10,187 nt of DNA from a virus (taxonomy: Monodnaviria > Loebvirae > Hofneiviricota > Faserviricetes > Tubulavirales): the IMG/VR virus record IMGVR_UViG_2667527591_000022. One strand, written 5' to 3'. The notes under the pieces are model-generated. The model worked only from the letters and a program-made list of their open reading frames with translations, had not been told where the DNA came from and ran no database searches. A program made the position numbers and the translations under genes. Positions 1,381 through 9,359 of this stretch are shown piece after piece (positions within the stretch are counted from its first letter, which is position 1; each line of letters opens with the position of its first letter).

Positions 1381-2592
1381 TTATTTACCATTCACATCAA
1401 ACGAAAGCATTTTGTCAGTCAGCACATCCCCCTTTGATGCCGTTCCCGATGAGCCTGACCAGAACGTCACTTTTTCACCGTCAACATTCAGTTCCGTGGC
1501 GCTGCCGTTCCATGGCTGAAAAGCGGTATAACGTCGCACCTGACCCGCCGGACCCAGCAGCACAAAATAAGGACTTGCTCCCCTGACATATCCAGCAAGC
1601 CGCCACTCCTTTGATACCGGAAGCACATCCGGTTTTTTCTGTCTCAGCTCTGATACAACCGTAGACGCAGGCAAAGGATGTGCAGGTGTCACGGCGCTTT
1701 CAGGCACAGGAGGGACAGCGGCACTAACCTCCCGATCGCCGGAGAAATAATGTCGGGCAACGGCAATCATCGCGGTGACGAGGAAAAGAAAGGCAATCAG
1801 CTTGCCCCACGGCTTTTTCTGTGAGGTGGCCTTTTTTTCGGGTTGTTGAGATAACGGATTCATTGTTTTAAGTGTGCGCCCGGGCAAAACAGAATAAACA
1901 GCACGCATATCCACAAAACGGCCATTAAGCAGCTCCATTCCGTCAGAGAAAATGAAATTAGTGTCGTAAACGTTGTAATAATCCGCAGCCCTGATAATGA
2001 TTTTATCTACGGGGCGACGTGCCGCGTGAATCGTGCCGTCATAAAGAAACGTACTGGCAGCCACGTAATGAGGAATAATCCCCCTTTTGCCTGATGCAAC
2101 CCCTGTTTTTCCTGGTCTGAATAATTCCATCAGTGGCGTAATCACAGGAACACGTAATTCATCAAGACGGCGGCAGCGAATAATTTTAGCCCCCATCGCC
2201 TTAATTATCTGGGAATCAATCATATCTTCATGCTGCGCAATCAGATAAACATCCCAGCCCAGCTTACGGGAATGTATCAGCCAGTCAATTAACGGTAATC
2301 TGTCCTTACGGGCAAAACCACGGGTATTCAGCCATGTCGCACACTCATCAAGAAATAACGCCCCGAAGCGTGTTTTTTCATTTTCAGGGCATCCACGACC
2401 AAGAAGCTCAAAGTCTTCAATGCGGGGCATAGCCGGAATAACCGTAACGGGGTTATCCGAACCTGAGGACATATATTCAGTGTTAAGCGGAAAATTTGCC
2501 GCAACCCGTAATCCACGGCGATAATAAAGTGAGGCAAAATAAGCTGCGACAATACCTTTACCCTGCCCCAGATTACCCGTGATAACTGGCAT
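1381..2592 (-). CDS. Filamentous-phage assembly/morphogenesis ATPase (pI / Zot family)
   Basis: N-terminal P-loop TGNLGQGKG closely parallels M13 pI TGKLGSGKT; central hydrophobic segment [15 protein letters not shown] as in pI/Zot; ATG at 2592 preceded by GGGGT; position after the pVI-like gene as in Ff. Confidence 0.85.
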
Positions 2593-2608
2593 AACTTACC
2601 CCGCAAAA

Positions 2609-2968
2609 TTACTTGCCAACATTAAGCCCATTTGATTTAAATAAATCATAAACCAATCGATACACTCTATCCTTATAAAGATATATGTATGAAATAAATT
2701 GAACATGGAGGATGATATTAAAGCAGTACTGAATATTTAAAGGCAGGTAACTGAATGCAACTACAATAACATCGAGTTTATTAACATCGGAGATTTGACG
2801 AATAATAAAATTGACGGCAGATACAAGAGCATAATATGAAGTGTAGCAAAGACCAAGATAAGAAAGGAGCTTAGCCCATGCAACAGCTTTATCACCGATA
2901 ACTCCTGCAATGAAACGTAGTGATTTTAAAACAACATCAACAAAAAAAGCACCTAAAATGGCCCACAT
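2609..2968 (-). CDS. pVI-like minor virion protein (hydrophobic, 119 aa)
   Basis: Size and hydrophobicity match Ff gene VI (112 aa); sits between the pIII-like gene and pI; its ATG overlaps the pIII stop (TGATG); GAGGT Shine-Dalgarno 9 nt upstream. Confidence 0.55.
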   Translation of the reverse strand: MWAILGAFFVDVVLKSLRFIAGVIGDKAVAWAKLLSYLGLCYTSYYALVSAVNFIIRQISDVNKLDVIVVAFSYLPLNIQYCFNIILHVQFISYIYLYKDRVYRLVYDLFKSNGLNVGK

Positions 2969-4323
2969 CAGAGTTTTACCTCACGTTCAAATAATGTACG
3001 GCGAGAAATAACAAAAACGCGTAACATGGTTATCATATAAATAGCATATTCAAGAACAGAACGAACATAATCGTCATAAGCTTTTGCAAAATGGCTTGTA
3101 TCAATCTTGAAATTAATAGCGCCAATCAACGGAAGATCAAAGCTAAATTGTAAAATAAAAGGAAGAGCAGTTCCATTATTTGTATTTACCAGTTTGTCAA
3201 TATTAACTGTAAGCCAATTGTTATTATCATGACTCTCACTTCCCTGTCCTGGCAAGTAATGCGAAAGCTCCCCTAAAGGGAAATCCCCATCAGGCAAAGA
3301 AGAAGCTATATTCTGACTAATATCTTTAATACCATTGTCCAGTGAATTTAATGCATTATTCATATCAGCCTGAGAAACAGAAAAAGCATTATTTAAATCA
3401 TTCACTGACACCCATATTGTTTTTAACCAGCCCAAAATACCATCAAGCCAGCCATTGTCATCGCCGGATGAGCCACCGGATCCTGAACCTGAACTACCGC
3501 TACCGGATGAACCGCCGGAGCCCGAGCCGGAGCCACCGCTACCGGATGAACCACCGGAGCCAGAACCTGAACCACCACTGCCGGATGAGCCGCCGGAACC
3601 CGAGCCGGAGCCACCGCTACCGGATGAACCACCGGAGCCAGAACCTGAACCACCACCGGAACTGCCGCCGCCTGGGTTACCACCACCGGAACTGCCACCA
3701 CCTGAGCTACCGCCATCCTCCTTACCATCGGAGAATGCAGGATCTACAGCAACTGGTTTCCAGTCGGCAGTACAAACTGTATCATCATCGGGATTACAAA
3801 TAAGAGGATTACCGGTTGCCTCATAAATACACCCCTGCACATTAACATAACGGGTCCCGTCATCACCTTTATAAACATCAGAAAAAGTCATACCATCAAG
3901 AACCGGACGAGAAAGACAAATCTCGTCAGTTGGCGGCTTATTATATTCAGGTGTCAAATCCCCCTCACCACCCTGAAAAGCAAGGGTGCAGGCTGTCCAC
4001 TTTTGCTTGTCTGAATCCCAGACTTTATATGCTGACCACCGGGCACGGACAAAAGACCCGACAGTCGAAGGTGCATTAACAGGCGTTGAAAGTGGCACAC
4101 CACAATAATGAATTATTCCGGAACATGCGTCATAACTGCCCGAACCACAGAAAAGATGACCGGCCGCCCTGGCTAATTTAATCGACGTCCCCGCGTCCGA
4201 ATAATCTGTCCTGCAGGATGAATGGCCTGCACACTGAACAAGTGCATCCGGATTTTCTTTCTCTTCAGCGAAAGAAAACGAGGAAAAGAACAAAAACAGA
4301 AGCGGAATAATAAAGTGAATCAA
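2968..4323 (-). CDS. pIII-like adsorption / minor coat protein with Gly-Ser-rich linker
   Basis: Hydrophobic signal peptide, Cys-containing N-terminal domains, long (G/S)n linker, C-terminal hydrophobic anchor. The ORF track begins at a GTG (4332) that overlaps the AGGAG Shine-Dalgarno; a TTG at 4323 has 8-nt spacing and is the more plausible start. Confidence 0.75.
   Translation of the reverse strand: MIHFIIPLLFLFFSSFSFAEEKENPDALVQCAGHSSCRTDYSDAGTSIKLARAAGHLFCGSGSYDACSGIIHYCGVPLSTPVNAPSTVGSFVRARWSAYKVWDSDKQKWTACTLAFQGGEGDLTPEYNKPPTDEICLSRPVLDGMTFSDVYKGDDGTRYVNVQGCIYEATGNPLICNPDDDTVCTADWKPVAVDPAFSDGKEDGGSSGGGSSGGGNPGGGSSGGGSGSGSGGSSGSGGSGSGSGGSSGSGGSGSGSGGSSGSGGSGSGSGGSSGSGSSGSGSGGSSGDDNGWLDGILGWLKTIWVSVNDLNNAFSVSQADMNNALNSLDNGIKDISQNIASSLPDGDFPLGELSHYLPGQGSESHDNNNWLTVNIDKLVNTNNGTALPFILQFSFDLPLIGAINFKIDTSHFAKAYDDYVRSVLEYAIYMITMLRVFVISRRTLFEREVKL
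3495..3665. repeat. 39-bp in-frame tandem repeat (about 4.5 copies) encoding the 13-aa Gly/Ser linker unit of the pIII-like protein
   Basis: ccggatga recurs at 3503, 3542, 3581, 3620 (period 39); the protein shows SGSGGSSGSGGSG-type units repeated. Confidence 0.9.
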
Positions 4324-4344
4324 ACAAAACACTCCTGGTATGAT

Positions 4345-7751: not shown

Positions 7752-8002
7752 TAATCACAAAACGATTTGGCGATTGCTAGAAGAGCAAAAAGTACCACCC
7801 GTGGTACAAAAGTGCAGTATTACATGATTGCTAAAAAGCAATATGCAGACAACCAGTGACTTAATTCTTGACCTGCTGATAAAGCATTTTGTTGTTGGCA
7901 GCATCACAGGCATGACAATATTCAGCCTGATAACGCTTGTCCTACCGTTGGTGATGACCATACACAACAAACTAAGTAAGGACACTGAAATCCTTTAAGG
8001 TT

Positions 8003-8098
8003 CAGTGCGCACAATGACGTTATGTATAAAAAGGCCGCTGCGGTGGAGAGTATCGCAGCGGCCTTTTCAACATAACGCGTGTCACATTATGCGCACTG
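8003..8098. other. Imperfect 96-bp inverted repeat whose arms resemble the XerC and XerD half-sites of dif; candidate folded attP(+) site
   Basis: Left arm aGTGCGCAcAA-tgacg-TTATGTataaa (8004-8030) against dif GGTGCGCATAA-TGTATA-TTATGTTAAAT; right arm in inverse orientation ttcAACATAA-cgcgtgtcaca-TTATGCGCACt (8065-8097). 8003-8016 pairs with 8085-8098 (13/14) and ttatgt (8020-8025) with acataa (8070-8075), leaving a bulge in the central region. Confidence 0.5.
8029..8067. terminator. Bidirectional rho-independent terminator
   Basis: Perfect 14-bp stem aaaaggccgctgcg / cgcagcggcctttt with 11-nt loop; A-run upstream and T-run downstream, so it reads as stem plus U-tract on both strands; downstream of the secretin on the minus strand and of the regulator on the plus strand. 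Confidence 0.55.
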
Positions 8099-8150
8099 AC
8101 GTTGTGGTAGGTAAACTGAGATGCCGCGTCCTGATAATCCCGGTCGGCAC

Positions 8151-9359
8151 TCAAACTTTTTTGACCTGTAACAGAATAACCATATCCGTGCGGCTCTTCT
8201 CGTCAGACTTCTGACTCCAGCTCTTTGGCAGAAATGATAATCCTGTGTTGGCCTGCGAATCCTTGTTTTCTGCCAGACCACCCAGCAACACAATATCGCC
8301 ATCTTTCAGAGTCAGCGACGTATCCACCTCACGCTTGAGCAACGTTGGCGAATCATTCACGCCCGTATCCGTTTTGACAAAGTTACTTAACTGCTGATTG
8401 ACGTTCAGGCTGATACGCGACGACGTGATAACCGGCTTAACTTTGAATATCACCCCCGAATCACGATACGTCACGGACTGAACGGCTTTACCATCCTCAT
8501 AAGACACGCTGCCAATAACCGGAACCTGTTCACCAACAGAAAACGTCGCTTCCTTGCCTGAATCCATGCGCAGCTGTGGCGCGGATACCACCTTAAAGCG
8601 GTTATCTGTTCTGAACAGTTCATACATCGCATTCAGCGTACCGGAGCTGAATGAAATGTAATTCCCCATCGAGGATGAGGAACCCACGCTGACACCAAAA
8701 CGCCCTGATAACAGTTTTGCAGCCAGTGCCAGCCCCGAACCTTCAGAGCGCCCTGTCTGCACCTCATAAATATACCCCGTTACCACAACCCCCTGAGCCG
8801 GAACATCAACCAGTGGAACCAGCTCCTTAAGGCGTGCCAGTTCTGAACGTGTCCCCCTGAAAACCAGTGAATCCCCCTCACCTGATAAGAATGAGCCGGA
8901 AGTTACCGGAGAAGATGCAACCGCATTCTCTGAAGATACCTGTGATGAACGCCCTGTCGTTGTACCCGAAAGCACGGCGGCAAGATAAGCTGGCGAACGG
9001 TTAAATGGTGTATATACCCATGAAACCAGTTTTTCCGGCGCAGCCACGGGTTTAAACGAGCGATAATGATCCACGCCATTACGAGTCTCAACAGAAATAT
9101 TCAGTTGTCTGAGCCAGCGCACATACTCTTCACGCTGTTTTTTCTGATCGCCCGTCAGACTTAAGTCCAGCGTCACCGGACGGGTATCGCTGGCAAGTTC
9201 AGGCGGCAACGCATACTGACGCCTGAAAATATCTTCCTGAGCCAGCTGTATCGCTGCATTGAGCGGAAGACGGTCAACAAAAAAGGCCGGAGACGAGGCA
9301 TGCACAGACGCCGAAGTCAAAAAAAGAAATGCTGTCAGTAAGTTAATCAATCTCATCAT
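8151..9359 (-). CDS. pIV-like secretin (outer-membrane export channel for filamentous phage)
   Basis: Signal peptide [21 protein letters not shown]; C-terminal secretin-like region ...[23 protein letters not shown]...VILLQVKKV comparable to M13 pIV; 402 aa. Confidence 0.8.

Follow-up and report, generated by a model that had tools for sequence, protein, structure and literature searches.

The 10,187-bp stretch of DNA analyzed here (the window) is the whole of contig CCCK01002538.1 from the draft Escherichia coli assembly GCA_000944435.1. We read it, with a probability of roughly 0.8, as one genome equivalent of an intact E. coli filamentous phage (Inoviridae) that has a gpA-type replication initiator (Rep) with a P2-like origin, Xer-type integration at the chromosomal dif site, a core resembling the single-strand initiation (ssi) sites of plasmids, and chimeric contig ends. 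In this phage an fs2-like layout appears to be combined with CTX-like integration in one intact inovirus. Phages of this kind are already known, including those with a gpA-type Rep in an Ff-like layout (fs2), and the find leaves the understanding of such phages unchanged. Its interest is modest and lies in the predicted P2-type origin motif, a variant metal-binding motif in Rep (HWN), and the amplified ssi-like module.

Phage DNA fills positions 42-10000 of the window, and both outer segments are non-phage. The arrangement of the genes can be seen in strain 100416, where two phage copies lie head to tail with a period of 8739 bp and the repeat region comes after gI and before gIV. The circular order is rep, a gene in the gene V position, two small hydrophobic genes, gVIII (coat), gIII, gVI, gI and gIV, which is the Ff order, with a small divergent regulator gene and the phage attachment site (attP) lying between gIV and rep. 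Two draft contigs, L010 and L023, wrap around the phage genome, and one genome equivalent comes to ~8.4-9.4 kb, varying with the number of repeat units. The initial annotation of this DNA had described a complete Ff-type inovirus with a canonical gene order. The order holds on the circular or tandem map (100416) but not in the window, where gene IV is upstream of rep; likewise, all phage genes are intact, but the span given for the complete phage (1381-9359) omits the array between gI and gIV (42-1367 and 9398-10000), and the attP had gone unnoticed.

Genes were identified by profile hidden Markov model searches with Pfam and PHROG, with open reading frames (ORFs) taken from a list of translations. 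This recovered all of the Ff-like modules that had been named, compactly arranged and with the ORFs as placed. Of the ten compact phage genes, that for a 62-aa protein lies on the plus strand and all others on the minus strand. Rep (666 aa; 5415-7415, minus strand) is a rolling-circle initiator of the P2 gpA family, as the earlier label of a phiX174/P2-type initiator had it (Pfam PF05840, Phage_GPA, E = 9e-49, 166.7 bits against a cut-off of 31.4; PHROG 91, "nicking at origin of replication", E = 1.2e-128); its occurrence in an Ff-type phage, presented as an exception, is no oddity, because fs2 has the same layout. Gene I (1381-2592, minus strand) encodes a Zot-like assembly ATPase of 403 aa (Pfam Zot, E = 1.8e-9, 37.8 bits against a cut-off of 20.3; PHROG 1675, "protein I of M13", E = 1.5e-50) in which the reported P-loop, GNLGQGKG, is present, and gene IV (8151-9359, minus strand) encodes a secretin of 402 aa (Pfam Secretin, E = 9.1e-25; PHROG 1012, "protein IV of M13", E = 5.1e-114). 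On the similarity of these two products to pI/Zot and to secretins the initial annotation had let its claim stand or fall.

The adsorption protein resembling that of gene III (2968-4332, or 4323, minus strand) has a signal peptide and a Gly/Ser linker and is 451 aa long as annotated elsewhere, or 454 aa when counted from a GTG. It matched Pfam Phage_Coat_A (E = 6.7e-9), PHROG 4150 (E = 2.8e-19) and PHROG 8482 (E = 2.5e-14), and the linker, noticed before, is visible as tandem repeats at 3464-3715. Its stop codon shares one base with the start (a 1-nt overlap) of the gene VI-like minor coat protein (119 aa; 2609-2968, minus strand), which was assigned from PHROG 1944 and position. The major coat protein precursor (80 aa; 4384-4626, minus strand) was assigned from PHROG 1646 and from its translation, which when read directly has the expected signal peptide, a hydrophobic core and a basic C-terminus; an 80-aa coat gene is also annotated in relatives. 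The statement that nothing suggests decay was borne out too, as no internal stops occur in the phage genes of the window and gene lengths are the same as those annotated in several independent genomes and contigs.

Rep falls into a cluster at 90% identity that holds 2063 member sequences and has a full-length representative (99% identity); together with the tandem, multi-copy prophages, this argues for a live element and not a remnant. Of 5426 complete E. coli genomes, 40 have the Rep gene, which occupies 71 places in all and is found up to five times per genome; the carriers are mostly human isolates, many of them from stool. Sixteen IMG/VR viral contigs carry Rep at 76-100% identity. The phage is also found on an IncFIB/IncHI1B plasmid of Citrobacter, and a divergent relative of an IS110 type (see below) with the same repeat unit is found on an IncC plasmid of Proteus. 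Whether the window copy produces virions depends on a replicative form or a tandem prophage state.

Predicted replication origin and integration at dif

Rep aligns with protein A of P2 and with the 709-aa RstA-like protein of a CTX-related element of Vibrio cholerae VCE232, and it keeps the tyrosine motif YxxKY (YIVKYITK at residues 450-457, compared with YIAKYISK in P2). In the last codons of rep (5421-5443, read on the minus strand from 5443 to 5421) we found the 23-nt sequence CTTGGACTTGTGACAATAACTGT, which matches the nick site of P2. In the P2 record (NC_001895) this site is annotated at 29892, inside gene A, with the sequence CTCGGAGTCCTGTCAATAACTGT; the two 23-mers agree at 18 positions, among them the run CAATAACTGT with which they end, at the annotated nick site. 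In the window the motif has a single occurrence, whereas 0 are expected by chance. A near-identical motif is present at the 3' end of rep in fs2 (inside the gene), in Shewanella phage Dolos (2 nt past the rep stop codon) and in the VCE232 element (beginning one nucleotide past the rep stop codon), the Reps of which are only ~30% identical to that of the window. We therefore predict that 5443-5421 forms the core of the plus-strand origin and that Rep nicks at G5440 or beside it. The gpA-family Rep would nick the viral strand, which would be the coding strand and thus the minus strand of the window, at this P2-like motif near the end of its own gene, and rolling-circle synthesis from the nick would yield single-stranded circles.

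The attP (8005-8098, minus strand) lies between gIV and the gene for the 62-aa protein and consists of two inverted dif-like sites, which on the viral strand are predicted to form a forked hairpin. Site 1 (8005-8031, plus strand) reads AGTGCGCACAA-TGACG-TTATGTATAAA, and site 2 (minus strand, ending at 8098) reads AGTGCGCATAA-TGTGACACGCG-TTATGTTGAAA. In the predicted fold, the 94 nt of the minus strand make a single long hairpin (-40.2 kcal/mol, z = -11.8) that has a 6-nt bulge where the central region lies. A search of the window for dif with up to three mismatches gave no match, as the phage sites are more diverged than this; they were recognized in the sequence by eye, once the junction in strain 100416 had been seen.

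In strain 100416, a prophage that is 98.5% identical to the window sits exactly at dif, between ydeT-side fimbrial genes and hipA, and its edge carries dif with one mismatch. At edge A, chromosomal GGTGCGCATAA passes into phage TGTGACACGCGTTATGTTGAAAAGG and then the remaining hairpin, and at edge B, phage AGTGCGCATAA passes into chromosomal TGTATATTATGTTAAAT, by which dif is regenerated. A single-copy prophage occupies the same dif locus in strain 600029, and contigs L012, L029 and L030 end in the same dif junction; the phages with dif junctions in these two strains and three contigs are 98-99% identical to the window. The junctions would fit the exchange of one strand by XerC in site 2 of a folded, single minus strand, at the point where the XerC arm meets the central region, and this pattern implies that it is the coding strand that integrates, as one would expect of an inovirus. 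Integration would thus be of the CTXphi type, with a dependence on XerC/XerD that we infer from these junctions: the host XerC/XerD would use the 94-nt hairpin of the viral strand and insert the single strand at the chromosomal dif, as for CTXphi. No integrase gene is encoded in the window. A dif insertion of this type would not be reversible, so that new phage DNA would have to come from tandem prophages or from the replicative form. The window's own attP is unrecombined, and the source of this copy is therefore either a replicative form or the point at which two tandem prophages meet.

Close and distant relatives that lack the Xer attP and the regulator region carry a gene for an IS110-family (RNA-guided) transposase upstream of rep (L004 12390-13355; L006 11164-12129; L007 20078-21040; L017 29347-30300; L009 16044-16339), at a distance of only 2 bp from rep in L004, L006 and L009. 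The sites occupied by these relatives vary and include ybiB/hcxB, the inside of yohG, bioH/gntX and the IncC plasmid. One phage backbone thus occurs with integration swapped between an Xer-based and an IS110-based mode.

The 339-bp array and the contig ends

In complete genomes a tandem array of a 339-bp unit lies between gI and gIV and is built of unit positions 253-339, then n whole units, then 1-309, so that a 57-bp core (unit positions 253-309) stands at both of its ends. Relatives without the array have a gI-gIV spacer of 111 bp, and the part that they share with it is the 57-bp core. Across relatives n ranges from 0 to 3, with n = 1 in 100416, 600029 and a Citrobacter plasmid, n = 2 in contig L012, and both n = 0 and n = 3 in different copies on contig L010. 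In the window the array is divided into two parts, whose core copies end the first (1311-1367) and start the second (9398-9454). Arrays are confirmed in finished genomes and the unit count of this short-read contig is uncertain: 3.9 units by the 3' end of gI (42-1367; period 339 and 98% matches by Tandem Repeats Finder) and 1.8 copies in the secretin-proximal part (9398-10000, comprising unit positions 253-339, one full unit, and 1-177).

In 3732 plasmid records, most of them of small mobilisable plasmids, there is a match to the ~100 nt of the unit (positions ~220-322) in which the core lies. Over 65 nt the core region has 80% identity to ColE1 (positions 1308-1371, which lie between the origin and rop), and its identity to RepL plasmids of ~2.3-2.8 kb is 82-97%. 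The primosome assembly site ssiA (n'-pas) is located just downstream of the ColE1 origin (PMC3167613, PMC3640518), and an ssi has also been described for the pHW126/pIGRK plasmid family (PMC6854812). According to the ColE1 record, replication runs from the origin towards rop, and the displaced strand is therefore the plus strand of that record. Since this displaced strand aligns with the minus (viral) strand of the window, the core has the right orientation for a complementary-strand origin. More tentatively than for the nick site, we suggest that the 57-bp core between gI and gIV may be a plasmid-type single-strand initiation site, at which a PriA primosome would start complementary-strand synthesis, and that it may have become embedded in the 339-bp unit and tandemly amplified with it in this lineage.

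Between phage lineages with only ~68% identity in the adjoining genes, the units are 90-96% identical, and on these grounds the module would seem either to have moved between lineages or to be strongly conserved; within the unit, conservation is highest in the ssi-like core. Complete genomes have the units nowhere but in phage copies, and the IS110-type relative has, for instance, 10 copies with 24 units in strain ZH48 and 5 copies with 12 units in strain 2017.17.03CC. A broader proposal is that we are dealing with a natural filamentous phage that uses a plasmid-type, PriA-dependent complementary-strand origin, whose 339-bp unit (~1-4 copies) moved between the Xer-type and IS110-type lineages, and whose P2-type nick motif is shared with fs2/CTX-like inoviruses. 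We regard this proposal as possible and somewhat doubtful. If it is true, the copy number of the array could tune the speed at which incoming single strands are converted to double strands, and tailed P2-like phages would be linked with fs2/CTX-like inoviruses by a common origin, the 23-nt P2-type nick motif.

The two ends of the contig are of a different nature. Positions 1-41 are part of a tailed prophage's gene for the large terminase subunit, which has a portal gene next to it; positions 1-43 are identical (100%) in 1046 E. coli genomes, where the annotation reads terminase large subunit, and comparison with the intact gene shows a microhomology of 2 nt at the join to the array. Positions 10001-10187 are the start of bssR and its upstream region, and 5425 of the 5426 complete E. 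coli genomes match these 187 bases, at the bssR locus, with 98.9% identity. The join to the array is located 77 nt inside the bssR coding sequence, at a microhomology GTTGC plus one extra T. The terminase and bssR loci are unrelated to each other, and both join the array in mid-unit, at differing unit positions. A simple insertion into bssR was ruled out, as the left flank is the terminase gene and not bssR. The assembly is fragmented, with more than 2500 contigs as judged from the contig numbering, and other short-read contigs of the phage also break off in the array, at N gaps, at Nextera adapter sequence or, once, at a piece of fadR. The terminase and bssR ends are thus most likely assembly chimeras formed at a repeat that the assembly did not resolve. 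In draft assembly GCA_000936105.1 (L013 2043-2333), the array is joined straight to the fadR coding sequence, which may be an artefact or a real event.

Alternative readings

Several observations weigh against an intact phage with chimeric contig ends. The ends of the window contig show neither N runs nor adapter sequence, the join of the array to fadR is a third junction between array and chromosome and stems from another draft assembly, and the contig holds a single copy of the origin motif. The ssi-like core is not unusual in fold stability (z = -0.85). Among the proteins, the matches of the pVI-like protein to PHROG 1944 (E = 1.6e-4) and of the coat precursor to PHROG 1646, "major coat protein" (E = 0.0035), are weak, and the 141-aa protein in the gene V position has no profile similarity to M13 gV or to the single-stranded DNA (ssDNA)-binding protein of Dolos (hhalign probability <1%). 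Finally, the HUH metal-binding motif of Rep (residues 391-400, window 6215-6244) has H-W-N where P2 has H-W-H, and in the Walker A motif of pI (GNLGQGKG, residues 6-13, window 2554-2577) the Lys is followed by Gly, where Ser or Thr is normal. With respect to the ends, these points would agree with a situation in which the junctions are real and a single phage copy, opened within the array, sits between the terminase fragment and bssR in the source strain. We consider this unlikely, and think equally little of the route that it calls for, namely illegitimate recombination, perhaps followed by rearrangement, and of its outcome, a phage that would be trapped because it has only one plus-strand origin. 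Apart from the microhomologies of 2-5 nt at joins free of N runs and adapter, and the fadR junction in the contig of another isolate, it is favored by the two array parts of the window, which differ at 5 of 516 positions, so that the contig is not a simple wrap-around. However, the flanks derive from unrelated loci in an assembly of more than 2500 contigs, other short-read contigs break in the same array with N gaps or Nextera adapter, and none of the complete genomes examined has the array anywhere but between phage gI and gIV, with unit counts that fit the phage copy numbers. In addition, sister phages sit at dif, and the attP of the window is unrecombined.

The motif variants could also mean that the element is a defective cryptic prophage, in which crippled HWN and GKG motifs in Rep and pI preclude replication and assembly. 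Both motifs indeed depart from the textbook consensus; that of Rep reads PHADG..HWN and that of P2 PHHDGTPHWH. We nevertheless find a defective prophage very improbable. Across the clade, which comprises Reps of enterobacterial inoviruses, the pattern is PH[AKRV]DG..HWN, against PHHDG..HWH in P2-like proteins, so that two of the four histidines are replaced, and relative to the canonical HUH this looks like a variant of the motif and not its absence. HWN is fixed in 35 homologues with 41-100% Rep identity from E. coli, Salmonella, Morganella, Providencia and Xenorhabdus, for which reason it appears to be a clade trait and not a lesion, and it is probably tolerated, as it is kept in divergent relatives. 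The same reasoning suggests that the Gly in pI is probably tolerated, because a phage lineage that is ~68% identical in DNA has GELGQGKG and thus keeps this feature. Moreover, all ORFs are full length, tandem and multi-copy prophages exist, and the phage is also carried on conjugative plasmids. As for the array, a role other than that of a minus-strand origin, be it as Rep-binding or plus-strand origin repeats, as a gene for a small protein or RNA, or as promoter or spacer of gene IV, strikes us as quite unlikely. It would be in keeping with ORFs of 83-107 aa that span each unit on both strands, some of them called by annotators, with the high unit identity between lineages whose flanking genes have diverged, which suggests selection or recent transfer, and with the lack of a special fold in the core. 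Coding was rejected because the array ORFs have no Pfam or PHROG match and the substitutions (11, 2 and 9 at codon positions 1, 2 and 3) have no clear third-position excess and no convincing codon-position bias. The array had no Rfam match, also in a lenient scan, and a structured element was rejected since on both strands the fold of the whole 339-bp unit is no more stable than that of shuffled sequences (z = -0.16 and 0.04). As the plus-strand origin the array was likewise rejected, since the single P2-like motif is found at another place; between rolling-circle origins in tandem the DNA is deleted, as described for pHW126 (PMC2831885), so that an array of active origins would collapse, which makes an active plus-strand origin in the array unlikely. 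An independent mobile element was discarded because phage copies explain the unit counts of the complete genomes. That the ssi-like core is the best-conserved part of the unit likewise argues against these other roles.

Comparison with described systems and remaining features

A search of the phage collection gave no DNA match beyond ~2% of the query, and the closest described Reps, with 29-33% identity, are those of the Vibrio phages VFJ, fs2 and Vaf1, Shewanella phage Dolos and the VCE232 element. The phage resembles fs2 (Saetivirus fs2) in having a gpA-family Rep, a gene in the position of the ssDNA-binding protein, small coat genes, gVIII, gIII, gVI, gI and its own gIV secretin, and it shares with fs2 and Dolos the origin motif at the 3' end of rep. 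However, its Rep is only 29% identical to that of fs2, which places it outside the genus Saetivirus, and it differs from fs2 and its relatives (VFJ, Vaf1 and Dolos) in its E. coli host, the HWN motif, the dif-type attP hairpin and the 339-bp array. With CTXphi of V. cholerae it has in common two inverted dif-like sites that form a forked hairpin on the viral strand, tandem prophages at dif without a phage integrase, junctions that fit an exchange by XerC alone (the use of Xer by the window phage being presumed from them), and a small divergent regulator upstream of rep; the RstA-like protein of the CTX-related VCE232 element is 31% identical to its Rep. Unlike CTXphi, it has a secretin of its own and no toxin cargo, and no other cargo gene is carried by it.

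YpfPhi of Yersinia pestis and CUS-1 of E. coli O18:K1:H7 have been described as tandem prophages of ~8.7 kb at dif with inverted XerC/XerD sites and a gene in the rstR position (PMC4266046). By this description they are like the window phage in size, dif site, tandem copies and rstR-position gene, but no Yersinia protein was among 92 Rep homologues, and of the complete E. coli genomes only the 40 of 5426 mentioned above have the Rep gene. The phage represents a second dif-targeting E. coli filamentous lineage that is apparently not closely related to CUS-1, and that is also found on the conjugative plasmids of Citrobacter and Proteus. It offers cis sites that lend themselves to testing, namely the nick site predicted at the end of rep, the hairpin of attP and the putative minus-strand origin.

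The minus-strand origin of the Ff phages (M13, f1, fd) uses RNA polymerase, whereas that of the window phage is probably of the primosome type. The two agree in protein I, protein IV and the N1 domain of pIII, which match M13 families, and in the order of genes V to IV. They differ in that the window phage is temperate and integrates at dif, has a gpA-type Rep and not one of the gene II type, and has its predicted origin inside rep, with the noncoding functions split over two intergenic regions. P2 protein A has the same Pfam family (PF05840), YxxKY motif and origin motif within the rep gene, but P2 is a tailed double-stranded DNA phage, with PHHDG..HWH in place of PHADG..HWN. In the case of the plasmid ssi sites, the core resembles ColE1 ssiA (n'-pas; 80% over 65 nt, in the same orientation relative to the displaced strand) and the pHW126/pIGRK type (82-97% identity to small RepL plasmids), but it resides in a phage genome, between gI and gIV and inside an amplified 339-bp unit, and priming from it is a prediction.

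The remaining genes are small. Two hydrophobic proteins of 56 aa (4651-4821, minus strand) and 46 aa (4814-4954, minus strand) are in the pVII/pIX position and have genes of equal length in relatives; a family search gave no match for either. The 141-aa protein (4959-5384, minus strand) matches PHROG 30648, of unknown function (E = 1.2e-95), and its assignment to the gene V (ssDNA-binding) role is by position only; its structure model was poor (predicted local distance difference test, pLDDT, 41), too low for a fold search. The divergently transcribed 62-aa protein (7563-7751, plus strand) lies in the rstR position and faces away from rep. It matches PHROG 2503, also of unknown function (E = 1.1e-28), and its model has an extended N-terminus and two helices (pLDDT 82.5). 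UniRef labels an identical sequence "Relaxosome protein TraY". We consider it a probable small DNA-binding regulator; a Foldseek search against the PDB had no match below E = 1, so that a ribbon-helix-helix fold would be a guess. Between the Rep start (7415) and this gene, in the divergent promoter region, a 16-bp repeat, TGCACAAATGCAATTG, is present in 2.2 copies (7486-7520, by Tandem Repeats Finder); it holds inverted TGCACAA elements and is a candidate operator. The ~250 bp between the 62-aa gene and attP (7752-8004) are without a recognised gene, and a 56-aa hydrophobic ORF there (7828-7998, plus strand) and a 76-aa minus-strand ORF had no family match. Scans of the window for tRNAs and Rfam families gave nothing, and a promoter and terminator scan was near the expectation from shuffles, with one hairpin followed by a T run 3' of the coat gene.

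Some relatives carry additional genes. In the IS110-type relatives a traX gene (F-pilin acetylase) lies between gI and the array (L007 9724-10086 and 12730-13527; L009 8729-9490), and the traX-carrying relative is present in 10-11 dispersed copies per E. coli genome. A small tolA-like gene is found beside the secretin in one IS110-type relative, and the traX and tolA-like genes are possible accessory or exclusion genes. In E. coli 700481, a hybrid filamentous prophage (L005 646-4959) adjoins the tandem copies; it has a Rep of the gene II/X family and an annotated single-stranded DNA-binding protein, yet the same secretin and a 62-aa gene of the same length in the regulator position, from which it follows that its replication module has been swapped.

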